In this document: positions 2,894-10,280 of the stretch, piece by piece
How positions within the stretch are numbered: position 1 is the stretch's first letter
How the letters are laid out: each line of letters opens with the position of its first letter
Source: a virus
UHGV virus genome: UHGV-0222540
DNA: 10,280 nt
Reading direction: 5' to 3' (one strand)
Position numbers and translations under genes: made by a program
The notes under the pieces: model-generated
The model's input: the letters and a program-made list of their open reading frames with translations, nothing else
What the model was told of the DNA's origin: nothing
Databases searched by the model: none

Positions 2894-3199
2894 ATGACAA
2901 TGGTCATAGGACAAGAAGATCAGAAATGCTGCCCGGCTTGCAATTCAGATGCGACCTGGCAGAACCGTGATACCGCTTGGTTAATTAGATGCCCGATGTG
3001 TGAAACATTTCTCATCAGGAATTCCACCATTGAAATTTTGCGAAGTGACGTTGTGTATCGGACATTAGCTGGTGACCTTCTCAAACAAGAAGGTGGGTGT
3101 GACTACATGCTTACAAGAGGAAGGCTTGCGAACTTCGCGAAAACCCAGCTCCCAAAATCAAAGTTTCAGGAATACTTCCCTGGTGACAACTACGAATAA
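2894..3199 (+). CDS. Hypothetical small protein with N-terminal C4 zinc-ribbon motif (cargo/moron)
   Basis: 101-aa ORF on the strand opposite to the late operon. CPAC-x18-CPMC motif (CxxC...CxxC). No signal peptide. Visibly more AT-rich than flanking late genes. Followed immediately by a 14-bp perfect-stem hairpin. Start could be ATG 2894 or 2900; Shine-Dalgarno is weak (GAGAG). Confidence 0.6.
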   Translation: MTMVIGQEDQKCCPACNSDATWQNRDTAWLIRCPMCETFLIRNSTIEILRSDVVYRTLAGDLLKQEGGCDYMLTRGRLANFAKTQLPKSKFQEYFPGDNYE

Positions 3200-4236: not shown

Positions 4237-4572
4237 TTACTCCTTCGAGCTACCAAATTTGTTACCGATTACTCGCATTGCAGCCCCACGAATAGCATCG
4301 ACACCGATCAGCCCCACGCCACCACCAATGGCAACAGAAAGCGATTTAGGCCATCCGACATATTCAAGAGCGGATGCAAAGGTCAGCGTCAGAGCGCCAC
4401 ATAGCAAAATCTCGAGCGTTTTTCGCTTCCAGCCACCACCACCGCCAAAATAGGCGATGCGCAAACCAGCCATAACGATCGACATAATCACTGCACCCAG
4501 CGGTGTGTCTCCACGCCACCAGCTCTGAAACAACTCCAGCCAGTCCGGCCAGGTATTTGGGTTATGAGACAT
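4237..4572 (-). CDS. Holin, class I, distantly lambda S-like
   Basis: Three predicted transmembrane segments and a charged C-terminal tail. The C-terminal two-thirds aligns loosely with lambda S (GLRIAYFGGGGGWKRKT... vs AYLRGRYNGGAFTKT...). Sits immediately upstream of R. Likely start is ATG 4572 (MSHNP..., GAGGTGA upstream) rather than the ORF-track start at 4668, which would overlap the methyltransferase. Confidence 0.8.
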   Translation of the reverse strand: MSHNPNTWPDWLELFQSWWRGDTPLGAVIMSIVMAGLRIAYFGGGGGWKRKTLEILLCGALTLTFASALEYVGWPKSLSVAIGGGVGLIGVDAIRGAAMRVIGNKFGSSKE

Positions 4573-4611
4573 TTCGTCATCTCTCACCTCGCGATATTTG
4601 CGGGTGCTGTG

Positions 4612-4641
4612 TTGGAAATAAAAAGGCCACGCAACGTGGCC
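4612..4641 (-). terminator. Rho-independent terminator (minus strand) between the methyltransferase and the holin
   Basis: GGCCACG-caa-CGTGGCC hairpin (4625..4641), 7-bp GC-rich stem. On the minus strand it is followed directly by TTTTTATTTCC. Lies 8 nt downstream of the methyltransferase stop. Confidence 0.55.
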
Positions 4642-4648
4642 ACCAGAA

Positions 4649-5701
4649 TTATTTCCCCACCAGTTCACTTACCTCTTTCACCGTCTGATTAAACCGCTCT
4701 GACTCAAGTTCAACACCTAACGCCCGACGCCCCAGCGCCATTGCTGCTTTTATTGTGGAACCGGATCCCATAAAGAAATCAGCAACCAGATCACCAGGTC
4801 GACTACTGGCATTGATTATTTGCCGGAGCATATCCGCCGGTTTCTCGCACGGATGTTTACCCGGGTAGAACTGAACGGGCTTATGCGTCCAGACATCGGT
4901 ATAAGGCACGGAGACTGATACGGAGAAATAGCGCCGGAGAGATTTAAACTCATCCAGCAATTCAGAATATTTGCGATTCAGTGAATCATAAGATGCCACC
5001 AGCTGGTGGTGTGGTTGTTCCAGTTGTTGTTCCTGAAACTTCTCTGCCGCTATACGGGAAAACAGTGCCTGTAACTTCCGATAGTCAGCCTCATTCGGCA
5101 ACTGCCACTGACTGGCACCAAACCAGTGGGAAACCATATTTTTCTTACCTGTGGCTTCGGCAATTTGTTTTGCCGTTATACCCAGTTCGGCACGAGCATC
5201 CCTGAAATACGATATCAGCGGTGCCATTATGTGCTGTTTGAGTTCCCTTTCTTTTGCCGCATAGCCGTCACTTTTGCCGCGATATGGCCCCTGGTAATGT
5301 TCAGCAAACAGAACGCGCTCTGTGGCAGGAAAATATGCGCGCAGACTTTCTTTATTACACCCATTCCAACGTCCGGACGGCTTCGCCCAGATGATATGGT
5401 TAAGCACGTTGAAACGTTCACGCATCATGATCTCAATATCAGATGCCAGGCGATGCCCACAGAACAGGTAAAGGCTTCCGGCAGGTTTCAACACCCGCCA
5501 GAACTGGGCCAGACAGTGGTCCAGCCACTTAAGGTAATCTTCGTCCCCTTTCCACTGATTGTCCCAACCGTTAGGTTTCACCTTGAAGTAAGGCGGATCG
5601 GTAACAATCAGGTCAATGGAATCATCAGGCAGGGACTGAATAAAATGCAGGCAATCAGCGTTGATTAAATCAACACTGTTTATTTTTACAGTATTTTTCA
5701 T
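4649..5701 (-). CDS. DNA methyltransferase, beta-class N6-adenine (or N4-cytosine) MTase, apparently orphan
   Basis: 350 aa. Catalytic motif IV DPPY (IVTDPPYF) near the N-terminus and AdoMet motif I FxGxG (DFFMGSGSTIKAA) near the C-terminus; this IV-then-I order defines beta-class amino-MTases such as CcrM and M.HinfI. No adjacent restriction endonuclease candidate. Confidence 0.9.
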   Translation of the reverse strand: MKNTVKINSVDLINADCLHFIQSLPDDSIDLIVTDPPYFKVKPNGWDNQWKGDEDYLKWLDHCLAQFWRVLKPAGSLYLFCGHRLASDIEIMMRERFNVLNHIIWAKPSGRWNGCNKESLRAYFPATERVLFAEHYQGPYRGKSDGYAAKERELKQHIMAPLISYFRDARAELGITAKQIAEATGKKNMVSHWFGASQWQLPNEADYRKLQALFSRIAAEKFQEQQLEQPHHQLVASYDSLNRKYSELLDEFKSLRRYFSVSVSVPYTDVWTHKPVQFYPGKHPCEKPADMLRQIINASSRPGDLVADFFMGSGSTIKAAMALGRRALGVELESERFNQTVKEVSELVGK

Positions 5702-5851
5702 GGATCAGTAAGCGTAACTCTGGTAGGCTCACTCTGCTTTTGCGCTAAAGCAGTGGGCCGTGGTTCGCTTGTGACCAGTAAGCATGAGCGAATGGCTGGC
5801 AGGTGCTACCAACACCCACCAGCCGCCCATTTTCACAGCAGGAAACCGCCA

Positions 5852-6055
5852 TTACTGGCAGCGTCTGAATTTATTCCCATACCCGCCGTTATCCTTCGCC
5901 AGACCCGCCAGAACTAACTGAGTCAGTATTAACTGGCACCGGGCTTCGCTTACTCCGGTAGTTCTCGTCATCATGCGTGGCGTTACCCACTTGTCAGCAG
6001 GTAAGAAATGAAGGACTACGGCGGCGGTTTCTGTCATATCTTGCTGTTTTAGCAT
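5852..6055 (-). CDS. Hypothetical small protein (possible winged-helix-like); start uncertain
   Basis: ORF 5852..6079. The internal ATG at 6055 has the best Shine-Dalgarno (AAGGGA about 9 nt upstream); ATG 6079 and 6037 are alternatives. No recognised homolog. Co-directional with the late operon and divergent from the 339-aa cargo gene. Confidence 0.4.
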   Translation of the reverse strand: MLKQQDMTETAAVVLHFLPADKWVTPRMMTRTTGVSEARCQLILTQLVLAGLAKDNGGYGNKFRRCQ

Positions 6056-6079
6056 GTCTTTTTCCCTTCTGGTTAACAT

Positions 6080-6374
6080 GACATACCAATAACTCTTGTC
6101 TAAAAAGCCAGCAAGATAAAAAGTCAGTATTCACGACCACCAGCGTGTTTACTGTACTGCACCAAGTTTACAGGTACAAAAAAACCGCTCAGCGGCGGGT
6201 TTAAGCTGTGTGGCGAAGTAACCACTCTTAACACAGTAATCTAGAAAATGCGGACCGCGTTAGTGATTTTTATCTGTTTTTCCATTATTTTTTTGCCACA
6301 CAACTTAAAACGAAAAATAAAGCAGGCGTTGCCAAACCTCACGGTGACAGTTGGCTTAGAATGAGGACATACTT
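6080..6374. promoter_or_regulatory. AT-rich divergent intergenic region; likely promoters for the plus-strand cargo gene and possibly a displaced late-promoter module
   Basis: About 295 bp with no ORF and long A/T tracts (TTTTTATCTGTTTTTCCATTATTTTTTTGCC). Plus-strand candidate promoter: TTGCCA (6293..6298), 17-bp spacer, AATAAA (6316..6321). Shine-Dalgarno GAGGA (6363..6367) precedes the TTG start at 6375. Minus-strand -10-like AATAAT at 6289..6284. Promoter calls are by eye only. Confidence 0.3.
6178..6202 (-). terminator. Weak intrinsic-terminator-like hairpin plus U7 (minus strand)
   Basis: Minus-strand sequence CCGC-tga-GCGG followed directly by TTTTTTT. The stem is only 4-5 bp, so this is marginal. 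Lies in the AT-rich intergenic region upstream of the small ORF. Confidence 0.3.
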
Positions 6375-7394
6375 TTGGATAAGTTTGATGAGATTCATGT
6401 AGACATTGAATCTGAGCAGCAAGCCTTCGATTTGCTTGAAAGCTATCTTGATGGTTATGGTTTACCTGACAGTTTAAGTTTCAACGGATGGCCAAACCTT
6501 ACCATCAGATTAACCGGTGAAAAATTCAACAGATCGCTAACACCTTCAGTTATGAAGGGATTTGTTGAAATGCAAGCTCAAATCAACAAATCATATGCCC
6601 TTGCCAAGTACGGTGTCCCTGACGTCCGCAAACTGACCAAAGAAGAACTTGATGCCCTAGAAATAGAAGTTACGGTAGAACAGGGTTCTTCAATAGTAGA
6701 AATCAACATTGATGGCTTTTTAACCAAACTCACACAGGAACTTGTTGGTAAAATGAACGCAACTGAGATCATGTTTACTGTTCTCGGCGCAGCAGTCATC
6801 TGGGGCGGAGTAACAGTATTTAAACGGTTCTTGGACAACCGCAAAGATATTCGCCTTGCAGAAATTGCTAAGGATGGAGAGAAAGAACATCTCCGGACTA
6901 TGCAGATCATGAGCGAGCAAGAAACTAAACGCCTGCGGGTTATTTCAGAAATGATTGCGGAAAAACCACTTCTCGATAACATGGACCGTATGTCGTATGA
7001 CGCTAAAACCCAAATGGTCAAATCCTTTGTGCGTTCAGATAACGCTCAAATTGATGGCGTTACTATTGATTCTGAAATGGCGAAAGAGTTGGTTACGAAT
7101 GCTCGTAGACGTTCATCAGAAATGAGGATTGATGGTATTTACCGAATTGAAGAAGTCAATAATACTGACCCAGAGAGTTTCAAAGTTAAGGTCCGACGCG
7201 TAGATACCGACCAACGTCTAACCTGCGTAGTTCAGGATGTTTTCCTTGATGAATCCGGAAACAAAGAAGCATTGCAGCGAGCTGAGTGGGAAAGAAAGCC
7301 TGTACATTTGAGCATTAACGCAAAACACGTCGATGGTGACATTAAGTCAGCAGTAATTCTCTATGTTCGAGATGTGGAACAAAAGCCCGAGTAA
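6375..7394 (+). CDS. Uncharacterised 339-aa protein with one predicted central transmembrane helix (cargo gene; candidate phage-defence/exclusion function)
   Basis: Long ORF on the strand opposite to all flanking phage genes. Visibly AT-rich against GC-richer flanks. Likely TTG start at 6375 with GAGGA 7 nt upstream; the first in-frame ATG at 6552 has no Shine-Dalgarno. Acidic N-terminal region of about 130 aa, one hydrophobic stretch (IMFTVLGAAVIWGGVTVF) followed by a positively charged patch (KRFLDNRKDIR), then a roughly 185-aa charged C-terminal domain. No family recognised. Confidence 0.7.
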   Translation: MDKFDEIHVDIESEQQAFDLLESYLDGYGLPDSLSFNGWPNLTIRLTGEKFNRSLTPSVMKGFVEMQAQINKSYALAKYGVPDVRKLTKEELDALEIEVTVEQGSSIVEINIDGFLTKLTQELVGKMNATEIMFTVLGAAVIWGGVTVFKRFLDNRKDIRLAEIAKDGEKEHLRTMQIMSEQETKRLRVISEMIAEKPLLDNMDRMSYDAKTQMVKSFVRSDNAQIDGVTIDSEMAKELVTNARRRSSEMRIDGIYRIEEVNNTDPESFKVKVRRVDTDQRLTCVVQDVFLDESGNKEALQRAEWERKPVHLSINAKHVDGDIKSAVILYVRDVEQKPE

Positions 7395-7402
7395 TCGGGC
7401 TT
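7383..7402. terminator. Bidirectional terminator hairpin shared by convergent Q and the cargo gene
   Basis: AAGCCCGA-gtaa-TCGGGCTT, 8-bp stem; the loop contains the TAA stop of the plus-strand ORF. On the minus strand the stem is followed by TTTTGTT, 5 nt after the Q stop (7409..7411). Plus-strand downstream sequence is A/T-rich but not a clean U-tract. Confidence 0.55.
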
Positions 7403-7408
7403 CAATAA

Positions 7409-7786
7409 TCAATCTTTAACTTCGGGGTCCATCTCTAGACTAATTTCCAACATCGATAGGCAGCCATCAATAAACCCCTCAGCCATCTGTATCTCAATGC
7501 GTATTAGTTTCTCATCCTTTTTACGAGCCTTGGCGAGCTTTCTTTTAGAGATACCGTATAGGTAATGGGCAACAAGAAGCGAGTGTTCTTCAGGTCTTTT
7601 TTGCTTTAGACGAGCAAGACAACCTTCAATAATTAATGCATCACTATCTGAACAAGCCTGACGTGTTTTGCTTGTATAGGGAAGAAGCCCTTTAAACCCA
7701 GCAGCTATAGGCGAATAGTCTACCCCAGAACTATCACTCGCCGCCCATGCCCCCCAACGATCCAGAACCATCTGAATATCACGCAT
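7409..7786 (-). CDS. Q: Late antiterminator Q (QuuD-like)
   Basis: N-terminus MRDIQMVLDRWGAWAA... and C-terminus ...AEGFIDGCLSMLEISLEMD closely resemble E. coli prophage QuuD as I recall it. The ATG at 7786 has a GGAG Shine-Dalgarno about 9 nt upstream; the ORF-track start at 7801 is a TTG. Confidence 0.85.
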   Translation of the reverse strand: MRDIQMVLDRWGAWAASDSSGVDYSPIAAGFKGLLPYTSKTRQACSDSDALIIEGCLARLKQKRPEEHSLLVAHYLYGISKRKLAKARKKDEKLIRIEIQMAEGFIDGCLSMLEISLEMDPEVKD

Positions 7787-7803
7787 CAACTTTCTCCACA
7801 AAA

Positions 7804-8799
7804 TCAGGCCAGCACGCCAATTGCCAGCGCGCGATCGATAAAACGAAATATCAGCTCCAGCTGGGAGCCATACTTCTCTTCAAATGCCACGGTATCCGCA
7901 TGCAGCTCGTCGTGATGCTTTCTGCACAAAGGCAACACAAAGAGGTCATGCGCTTTTGTACCCATTCCCCCCTGACCGTGGCCTATCAGGTGGTGGGGAT
8001 CATCAGCGGGCTTTCCACAACATGCACACGGCTGTGTCTTAACCCAGCGCGTGTACTTTTCATTAACCCAGCGGCGACGTTTTGGGCGTAACATAAAAGA
8101 CTCCGGCGACTCCGGATCCACTTTCAGCGCCAGCACCTTTTTTGCCTTATCCTGGATGATGCTGGTGGCAGGAACCGAAGGCACAAGGTCACTTTCCCGG
8201 GTGACAGACGGCACAACAGGCTTTGGTAATCTCAGTGCCTTACGGGCTGCACTTTCCGGTAAGGCATCCGCCAGGTCATTACGAATCAGCCACCAGCACA
8301 GTTCCGGCATTGTCACAACGTGACTATCATCAAAACCGAGATCCCGACGCACAACAGACAACACCCAGCGGGCACAGTTATCCGTTGCCATTGATTCCAG
8401 CCGTTCCGTGAACTGATCGCGCAGCTGGTTATCACAGTGCCAGCACAGACGGATTGCGCCCGGAGCGTGTCGCATTGTGGTCATGTTCTCGCTGTGCCAG
8501 TCGGAATGAGGCCACTGGCAGCCTTTTTCACGAAGTAACCAGCTTTCAAGACATTCCACGCCACCAGCACGACGGATCACTGCCTCATTGCGGAACACGG
8601 CCCGAACAGCAGGATCATCCGCCAGCGGTTGTGATGCCGCGGGAACGGCACCACTGGCGAAAGATGAATAACGTTCCGGCTCAGGCTCCAGCAGTACACG
8701 CCCCTGCATAAACAGGGGCATCAGCTCTGAACCTGGTCTGAACAATACGATCCCCATACGCGGGGCTATTTCAGGGGTCAGTAGTGCTCTCACGGTCAC
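7804..8799 (-). CDS. Prophage DUF968-like protein with C-terminal HNH-like zinc-binding motif
   Basis: 331-aa ORF between the KilA-N gene and Q. C-terminal CACCGKPADDPHHLIGHGQGGMGTKAHDLFVLPLCRKHHDELH looks like an HNH/zinc-finger nuclease signature. Family assignment (YdfU-like) is from memory. The start at 8799 is GTG, one nt after the upstream stop, with no clear Shine-Dalgarno, so the true start is uncertain. Confidence 0.75.
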   Translation of the reverse strand: MTVRALLTPEIAPRMGIVLFRPGSELMPLFMQGRVLLEPEPERYSSFASGAVPAASQPLADDPAVRAVFRNEAVIRRAGGVECLESWLLREKGCQWPHSDWHSENMTTMRHAPGAIRLCWHCDNQLRDQFTERLESMATDNCARWVLSVVRRDLGFDDSHVVTMPELCWWLIRNDLADALPESAARKALRLPKPVVPSVTRESDLVPSVPATSIIQDKAKKVLALKVDPESPESFMLRPKRRRWVNEKYTRWVKTQPCACCGKPADDPHHLIGHGQGGMGTKAHDLFVLPLCRKHHDELHADTVAFEEKYGSQLELIFRFIDRALAIGVLA

Positions 8800-9629: not shown

Positions 9630-10019
9630 TCAGGCGGCTGCACCCGCCGTTTTCTCGTACTTACTGATAGTGATCTCGACCTTCCCTTCCGGGATAACCG
9701 GTCCCCACTCCACCAGCATTCTTTTCACCTGACTGTCGTCTTCCCACACACCCGCGTGGGTCAGGGCGTCAAACAGCGCCTTGTTATAGTTGTCCAGATC
9801 GCGGATCCGGTTATCCGGAGGAAACAACACGATCTCCACTGAAGCAGGTGCCGACGTTGGTTTCGGCAGACGACGTAACTGCTCAACTATTGCTGCGCAC
9901 GCCGCGCTCTGGAATTTTCGCCCCGCCGCGCTTATCAGACTCTTACCAGCAAACGCCCCTTTGTTGGGGTGTCGCCAGTACGTGTTCACGCTGGGCGGGA
10001 AAGGCAAGATCAGCTTCAT
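9630..10019 (-). CDS. rusA: RusA-family Holliday junction resolvase
   Basis: 129 aa. N-terminal LPFPPSVNTYW and the catalytic-region pattern RIRDLDNYNKALFDALTHAGVWEDDSQV closely parallel E. coli RusA (RRRDLDN...AFDALTKAGFW.DDAQV). Confidence 0.9.
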   Translation of the reverse strand: MKLILPFPPSVNTYWRHPNKGAFAGKSLISAAGRKFQSAACAAIVEQLRRLPKPTSAPASVEIVLFPPDNRIRDLDNYNKALFDALTHAGVWEDDSQVKRMLVEWGPVIPEGKVEITISKYEKTAGAAA

Positions 10020-10091
10020 ACTTTCAGGCCTCTCTCATGTAACCAGTGGGCTGCACGCAGCCTGGCGTTTTCCTCACCGGCAAGCAGTGCG
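9974..10091. repeat. Left arm of a perfect 118-bp inverted repeat
   Basis: 9974..10091 is the exact reverse complement of 10163..10280, checked base by base. First mismatch is at 10092/10162. The arm covers the rusA start and its upstream region. Confidence 0.9.
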
Positions 10092-10162: not shown

Positions 10163-10280
10163 CGCACTGCTTGCCGGTGAGGAAAACGCCAGGCTGCGTG
10201 CAGCCCACTGGTTACATGAGAGAGGCCTGAAAGTATGAAGCTGATCTTGCCTTTCCCGCCCAGCGTGAACACGTACTGGC
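10163..10280. repeat. Right arm of the inverted repeat (runs to window end, may extend further)
   Basis: Reverse complement of 9974..10091. Contains a plus-strand copy of the rusA 5' end (ATG at 10236, MKLILPFPPSVNTYW...) with the same Shine-Dalgarno. The 71-bp spacer 10092..10162 is unique. Confidence 0.9.

Follow-up and report, generated by a model that had tools for sequence, protein, structure and literature searches.

A probable Q21-family late promoter and terminator cassette separated from its Q gene by antisense cargo in a lambdoid prophage

The minus-strand segment 6274..6178 of the window, by which we mean the whole analyzed stretch of 10,280 nucleotides, is in all probability (about 0.8, judged from sequence and comparison) the PR'-tR' cassette of a lambdoid prophage with a Q21-family (PF06530) antiterminator, displaced from the Q gene by an antisense cargo cassette. 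This result points to the most likely late start in the window and would explain why the flank of Q is devoid of a promoter. The window spans the late-regulatory and lysis/packaging region of the prophage, transcribed on the minus strand in the order rusA, KilA-N gene, DUF968 gene, Q, small ORF, N6 methylase, holin, lysozyme, Rz, HNH gene, and terminase genes. Its segment 5700-7900 has full-length matches at 99% identity in prophages of 76 complete E. coli genomes, e.g., APEC O78 (NC_020163 1,280,465-1,282,665). The lone plus-strand ORF between Q and the small ORF encodes the 339-aa cargo protein; it converges with Q and runs in the antisense direction relative to late transcription.

The ORF list and Pfam bear out the gene layout given by the sequence-only reading, including the non-coding nature of the 295-bp gap at 6080-6374. 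The gap is also AT-rich as described, with a GC content of 0.41 vs 0.513 for the window; low GC is shared by the cargo gene (0.42) and Q (0.44). The features on which the following analysis relies are:

7409..7801, minus strand: Q antiterminator gene (Pfam PF06530, E 1e-52; stop codon 7409-7411)
7383..7402, both strands: strong hairpin between the Q and cargo stop codons, from folding
6375..7394, plus strand: cargo ORF of 339 aa (phrog_6191), TTG start, Shine-Dalgarno GAGGA at 6363-6367
6293..6321, plus strand: candidate cargo promoter TTGCCA-17 nt-AATAAA, from sequence inspection; weak, lacking the T at the last -10 position
6265..6274, minus strand: A-tract GATAAAAATC (-49..-40), a possible UP-element-like part of PR'
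6250..6258, minus strand: palindrome GCGGTCCGC, candidate Q-binding element at about -33..-23 (here -32..-24), a fixed 17 nt from the conserved block
6233..6238, minus strand: predicted PR' -10 hexamer TACTGT (-12..-7), aligning with TATCAT of the Sakai PR'
6226, minus strand: predicted PR' start, the A in TAAG-A-GTGG, homologous to the Sakai start mapped by dRNA-seq (L010:2008)
6205..6232, minus strand: conserved initial-transcribed block GTTAAGAGTGGTTACTTCGCCACACAGC of 28 nt, (nearly) identical in all Q21-family relatives
6178..6196, minus strand: first late terminator (tR'-like), stem-loop at 6196..6184 and T7 at 6184..6178
5852..6079, minus strand: first late-operon ORF (phrog_331), probable true start 6055 (67 aa), the equivalent of the PGAP start
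4649-5701, minus strand: N6 DNA methylase gene of the late operon
4625..4641, minus strand: second, stronger intrinsic terminator, GGCCACGTTGCGTGGCC then TTTTTATTT (-19.7 kcal/mol, z -3.2)

Two further observations concern the remainder of the window. A perfect inverted repeat of 118 nt (9974-10091 and 10163-10280, separated by a 71-nt spacer) reaches its right end and overlaps the start of rusA, whereas ordinary genes occupy this place in the near-identical prophage of APEC O78; the repeat may be an artefact of assembly or of a contig end, or a rearrangement. Between Rz/Rz1 and the HNH gene, a 101-aa ORF (2894-3199) runs on the plus strand, opposite to the surrounding late genes; its matches are weak (zinc-ribbon or Lar-like), and it could be a further moron in antisense orientation.

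The predicted late promoter and its terminators

Read on the minus strand, the conserved block is TGTTAAGAGTGGTTACTTCGCCACACAGCTTAAACCCGCCGCTGAGCGGTTTTTTT and is kept in every relative with a Q of the same Pfam family; it is by this conservation that it stands out from chance. Its 28-nt core (6232..6205) occurs once in the window, and no second copy of PR' was found near Q; since the block is unique, no alternative PR' lies beside Q in the window. A degenerate 21-nt pattern over the core is present in more than 120 phage and prophage contigs, the conservation of the block at -4..+17 being partly imposed by this search pattern. The A at -11 and the T at -7, both outside the pattern, are nearly invariant in 68 unique related sequences. 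Among phage records sharing the flanks, the segment from Q to about 6234 is variable, and in phages with an unrelated Q of 250 aa, another sequence replaces the block upstream of the hairpin. In the cargo-less relatives 1720a-02, PPyecE, PhiR5_1, and PhiR49_2, the block starts about 40 nt past the Q stop codon.

In 933W-type Shiga-toxin phages, for which a mapped transcript is available, the sequence immediately past Q matches the block at ∼84%. In the Sakai prophage Sp5, the PR' start was mapped by dRNA-seq to 1,266,203 and the tR' 3' end to 1,266,460 (Sy et al., 2020; PMC7547250). By our placement, these ends correspond to L010:2008 and about 2265 in VT2-Sakai. The placement was confirmed by the tR' hairpin, which ends there (+258), by the RNase E motif GUAUU near +173, and by a TTTACG-16-TATCAT promoter that ends 7 nt before the start. 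Window positions 6226..6173 are 84% identical to +1..+54 of this transcript.

The sequence-only reading had seen promoter-like hexamers on both strands of the gap. This was not borne out, as a consensus scan returned 6 sites in 5600-7900 vs 3.8 ± 1.8 in shuffled sequences. Promoter prediction on both strands gave no minus-strand site in the gap and missed PR'. The consensus terminator scan likewise did not exceed shuffled sequences. The sole site inside the gap (plus strand, 6344-6373) is implausible because it overlaps the Shine-Dalgarno sequence and the start codon of the cargo gene. What would mark the predicted PR' as a sigma70 promoter is its homology to the mapped Sakai PR' together with the conserved TAnnnT (-12..-7), but the -35 position is unmatched, reading a non-consensus AACGCG, and the scan gave no hit. 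The A-run at -45..-41 is partly conserved over the 68 unique related sequences and lies directly upstream of the -35 element in Sakai; it may act as an UP element. We also considered TAGATT (6243..6238) as the -10 hexamer, since TAAGAG would then fall at +2..+7, the position known from phage 21. This register is not conserved in the other Q classes, and it was rejected because the TAnnnT register beside GTTAAG is conserved and matches the mapped Sakai start.

Within the initial transcribed region, TACTTC (+7..+12; 6220..6215) is the best but an unconvincing candidate for a sigma-dependent pause hexamer (-10-like, nAnnnT), as it lacks the final T; the Sakai counterpart is TACATT, and a few loci have TACTTT. 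A PR' of the phage 82 type (pause at +25, GCC at +15-17) was dropped, PF06530 being the Q21 family and Q82 belonging to PF06323 (PMC9388147). The first 17 nt of the predicted transcript could form a 5' hairpin of 5 bp (GUGGU/GCCAC; 6225..6210, minus strand), which is kept in Sakai and, via a G-U pair, in DLP12.

The minus-strand hairpin with its U7, described as weak in the sequence-only reading, proved real and has the stem-loop GCCGCTGAGCGGT. It is indeed weak: the stem has 5 pairs, and the entire 50-nt RNA reaches an MFE of -12.6 kcal/mol (z -1.3 vs shuffles). The predicted terminated RNA would be about 47-49 nt long. Downstream on the same strand lie holin, lysozyme, Rz, and terminase, i.e., the late genes expected behind such a terminator. 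In phages with a PF03589 Q, the same hairpin is found downstream of a lambda-like PR' (TTGCAT-17-TAAGAT, then AACGATGGG), and its presence in two Q systems argues for a functional tR'. In VT2-Sakai, an 8-bp GC-rich hairpin followed by U7 occupies +24..+49 of the PR' transcript (L010 2031-2056), far upstream of the published tR'. As that tR' lies at +258, polymerase must at least partly read through this first hairpin (+24..+50), which is homologous to that of the window and stronger; either it terminates a fraction of the transcripts, or the published libraries did not retain the short products.

The second terminator lies past the methylase gene and ahead of the probable true holin start. The long holin ORF (4237-4668, minus strand) overlaps the methylase stop codon and contains the terminator, and the Pfam holin match begins at residue 35 of this ORF, suggesting that the real start is near 4572. 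With a strong terminator before that start, the lysis genes would stay Q-dependent even if the first terminator leaks. In phage Ayreon, a terminator is annotated at the equivalent place.

The hairpin that the sequence-only reading had placed just past Q is present as well, beginning 6 nt after the Q stop codon and overlapping the cargo stop codon. On the minus (Q) strand, it folds at -15.1 kcal/mol (z -3.9) and is followed by UUUUGUU; on the plus (cargo) strand, folding gives -15.0 kcal/mol (z -4.5), and there is no U-tract. The terminator scan missed it because the T-tail is short. This hairpin is probably an insulator or terminator between the convergent genes.

On the proposed mechanism, sigma70 polymerase would start at about 6226 using the TAnnnT -10 element (TACTGT) and the upstream A-tract, with essentially no -35 element. 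In the absence of Q, most transcripts would stop at the hairpin and U7 (6196..6178), yielding an RNA of about 49 nt, and those leaking through would stop at the second terminator (4641..4625) ahead of the lysis genes. After induction, Q made from the gene 1.18 kb upstream and acting in trans would bind the palindrome GCGGTCCGC and load onto a polymerase that pauses within the conserved block of the initial transcribed region. The terminator-resistant polymerase would then express the small ORF, methylase, holin, endolysin, Rz, and terminase.

Processing of the Sakai PR'-tR' transcript yields StxS, an sRNA that binds Hfq (PMC7547250), and the window has the first 54 nt of this transcript in common. 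The short RNA could accordingly be primarily a trans-acting sRNA like StxS and not just a by-product of antitermination. We regard this as very improbable. The functional 74-nt 3' part of StxS, which carries the Hfq-binding region and the rpoS/stx1B seed, was not found in the window by BLAST; it is present in 20/132 loci, which include the examined Stx phages Sakai Sp5 and BP-4795. No Rfam family matched the window at E <= 1, and ARAGORN likewise reported nothing across it.

Cargo between Q and the late promoter

The sequence-only reading had proposed that a late promoter and a short terminated transcript lie in the gap and that the cargo gene was inserted between Q and PR'. Comparison strongly supports this proposal. 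A pattern scan of IMG/VR yielded 120 further loci. In the 107 loci for which an upstream Q could be read, the nearest one is always of the PF06530 type (107/107). The predicted start follows the Q stop codon after 9-44 nt in 29 of these loci; in the other 78, cargo intervenes and the distance is 630-2889 nt. The layout is also found in DLP12 and in the phages cdtI, PhiR40_1, and Stx2a_1447, which were deposited as isolated, complete genomes. The displaced promoter is thus supported by the homology to the mapped Sp5 PR', by an architecture like that of phage 21, by the position of the block 9-44 nt past Q where cargo is lacking, and by the single copy of the block in the window. Its occurrence in 78/107 loci and in DLP12 indicates that a displaced promoter is common and not peculiar to the window; on these sequences, the layout is an ordinary one that recurs in many E. 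coli prophages.

A different outcome of the insertion would be that the cargo uncoupled PR' from Q and left the block as a dead relic, the late genes being silent or served by read-through from PR across Q and the antisense cargo. The weakened terminator stem and the non-consensus -35 region of the window fit such decay, and the window may stem from a prophage without established viability, whose 118-nt inverted repeat suggests rearrangement or an assembly problem. Yet the same layout occurs in the isolated complete phages named above and in most of the loci, and 5 loci with the window's cargo have the promoter, the palindrome, and the block in intact and identical form. The strong hairpin right after Q also argues against the read-through route. 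Loss of function by displacement is consequently quite improbable, and a working PR'-tR' cassette remains the preferred reading.

The DNA inserted between Q and the block falls into 23 architectures with 36 ORF families, and 20/23 architectures are wholly antisense to late transcription. The cargo includes the porin nmpC, Kiwa KwaB (with a small membrane ORF), the KAP NTPase PDC-S20, and an HNH protein resembling PDC-M68A (loci L014-L133). As in a moron or accessory slot, variable genes lie between conserved flanks, and the cargo would have a promoter of its own. The junction between Q and the predicted PR' is thus a recurrent insertion site, and it is a place to seek lysogen-expressed cargo and defence genes. 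Our literature searches found no description of this junction as a hotspot.

In the window, the junction appears to be filled by a self-contained, antisense cargo cassette at about 6275-7408. The consensus scan did not pick up the candidate cargo promoter listed above. Searches with the cargo protein gave no match in PADLOC, NCBIfam, or PDB sequences and none above cut-off in Pfam. About 100 clusters of homologues were found in Enterobacterales, Pseudomonas, Acinetobacter, and Burkholderiales, all annotated as hypothetical and without a Pfam domain. The AlphaFold model (pLDDT 84) comprises an N-terminal alpha/beta domain, a helical middle part, and a C-terminal beta-barrel, with a hydrophobic helix at about residues 129-150. 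Foldseek comparison of the model with the PDB gave weak OB-fold matches to the C-terminal part (best E 3.8e-3). In Salmonella prophages, homologues adjoin the cI repressor gene, and in those of P. aeruginosa they lie between tail genes I and J; their presence in such other slots suggests that the cargo gene is a mobile moron.

The sequence-only reading had further remarked that the small ORF and the cargo gene diverge from the gap, a common regulator/effector arrangement. On such a reading, the small minus-strand ORF would regulate the plus-strand cargo via shared operators. The two ORFs do diverge from a 295-bp AT-rich gap that holds a palindrome. However, the small ORF occurs in 24/74 loci with cargo vs 5/22 without, its presence being independent of the cargo, and we rejected the pairing. 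The small ORF and its upstream region as far as the hairpin are kept in the cargo-less 720R4 and 1720a-02 and alongside quite different cargo, while homologues of the cargo occupy other prophage slots without the small ORF. The palindrome, moreover, follows the Q subtype and not the cargo. The late operon opens with the small ORF (phrog_331), which is also found in phages with an unrelated Q. A regulator/effector function has hardly any probability left, and this tempting interpretation of the region can be set aside in favor of the displaced late promoter.

The palindrome and Q subtype

By its sequence, the window's Q is a member of the Q21 family and of the 933W/QuuD clade. The listed ORF has 130 aa; homologues begin at MRDIQ, corresponding to about 125 aa. 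A distant match to the Q21 chains 6p18/6jnx in the PDB was obtained (E 4.6e-4). The whole clade of the window's Q is without the long loop of Q21.

The palindrome upstream of the block differs in sequence between lineages and is always 17 nt from the block. Palindromes from separate classes read, for example, GCGGTCCGC, GCGTACGC, and TTTACGATCGTAAA. Over the 107 loci, ten Q clusters (80% identity) fall into six palindrome classes with zero exceptions:

Class 1: CGCGGTCCGC, the window's own
Class 2: CGCGTACGC or CGCGCACGC
Class 3: TTTACG(A/T)(T/A)CGTAAA
Class 4: TGTTATAACA
Class 5: TGGAATTCCA
Class 6: ATTCGTTACGAAT

Q clusters of one class, although 63-73% identical, have a common recognition (second) helix of the HTH. 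The signature of this helix is EK(L/A)IRIE in the window's class, TIRKE in the next, and (V/I)G(R/K) in the 933W/QuuD class. As the palindrome classes track Q subtype and recognition helix without exception, GCGGTCCGC is likely the Q-binding element (QBE) of the window's Q subtype. Physical linkage may contribute to the association of Q and palindrome, since cargo families are not shared between Q clusters.

The cassette might be a PR'-tR' region in which the palindrome is not the QBE but an insulator or terminator for antisense transcription, or the site of another factor, with Q reading, e.g., the block. Q21 binds tandem repeats and not palindromes, linkage could produce the observed association, and on the plus strand the palindrome forms a hairpin followed after 5-7 nt by a T-run, which a scan called terminator-like. 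As RNA, however, the palindrome folds no better than shuffled sequences (-4.6 kcal/mol, z -0.15), and the T-run is displaced from the stem. Its position at -33..-23 is where the QBEs of lambda and phage 21 sit, and the class-specific recognition helices co-vary with it. The block is the same for all six Q classes and so cannot encode specificity. We therefore consider a role other than Q binding unlikely and favor the palindrome as the QBE.

A wider proposal is that the QBE of the 933W/QuuD clade is a short palindrome with at least six specificity classes that co-vary with a compact HTH helix, implying a DNA-binding geometry unlike the tandem-repeat one solved for Q21, and that the Q-QBE junction is a dedicated hotspot for antisense, lysogen-expressed cargo including Kiwa, PDC-S20, and the 339-aa protein as an uncharacterised member. 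To this combined proposal we give roughly even odds. Q/PR' compatibility in this clade is thought to influence toxin output (PMC6266700), and the palindromes are candidate DNA sites that set the specificity of Q in the clade of Q933W, from a Shiga-toxin phage, and of K-12 QuuD. No QBE for Stx phages or for the Q clade of the window was found described in our literature searches.

Comparison with known late promoter systems

The late promoter cassette of phage 21 (OL657228; Yin et al., 2019; Shi et al., 2019) belongs to a Q of the same family (PF06530) as in the window. Its annotation comprises a -35 element, a QBE of two 8-bp subsites (QBEu/QBEd) at -27..-12, a -10 element, the start, an SDPE at +2..+8, and a terminator at +3..+50, altogether ∼90 bp. 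The window has a matching compact plan of ∼90-100 bp, with a candidate Q site between the -35 and -10 positions, a terminator that ends near +50, the same predicted length of the terminated RNA (about 49 nt), and the late genes next to it. It differs in the place of TAAGAG, which resembles the SDPE TAAGCT of phage 21 but lies at -4..+2 and not at +2..+7. The two Q proteins are about 30% identical over 80 residues, and the long HT[loop]H loop of Q21 is missing in the window's Q. Whereas the QBE of phage 21 consists of tandem TGAGCA repeats, the window has a 9-bp palindrome instead; the tandem subsites ATTGAGCA/AATGAGCA are absent from window positions 6300..6160. The phage 21 cassette abuts Q, while that of the window is predicted 1.18 kb away from it.

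In the Sakai prophages Sp5 and Sp15 (933W-type), the -10 position, the start, the initial transcribed block, and the first hairpin with U7 are homologous to those of the window (84% over +1..+54), and Q is of the same clade with about 50% identity. Unlike in the window, Q ends 21 nt before the start. The Sakai palindrome is of another class (TTTACGATCGTAAA) and doubles as the -35 element, and the 3' part of the transcript ending at the published tR' (+258) forms StxS; this part is missing in the window.

The displaced architecture of the window is also that of DLP12 in K-12, with the order quuD, nmpC, block, and essD rrrD rzpD. Here, a PF06530 Q is followed by the antisense porin gene nmpC (interrupted by IS5), and block and hairpin lie 160 bp upstream of the lysis genes. 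The comparison with QuuD-type prophages called for by the sequence-only reading is thus in agreement with the displaced layout, the block being located between nmpC and essD. DLP12 differs from the window in its Q cluster, palindrome class (TTTACGTACGTAAA), and cargo, and has no small ORF or methylase gene between terminator and holin. No description of a DLP12 late promoter was found in our literature searches.

The predicted logic of the window is the same as that of the lambda PR'/6S RNA/tR' system (PF03589 Q), i.e., a promoter, a proximal pause, Q loading, and a short terminated RNA, which is 194 nt long in lambda. The lambda Q is unrelated to that of the window, and the promoter and pause sequences differ. 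The two systems meet in relatives of the window with a PF03589 Q, namely 720R4 and Ayreon, in which a lambda-like AACGATGGG pause element is fused to the terminator hairpin of the window. In vB_EcoM-720R4 (L004 2010-2108), a lambda-like PR' (TTGCAT-17-TAAGAT, start, AACGATGGG) serving a 250-aa PF03589 Q is joined to a window-type hairpin and late module, suggesting that recombination at the hairpin has linked cassettes specific to different Q proteins with a late region that they have in common.
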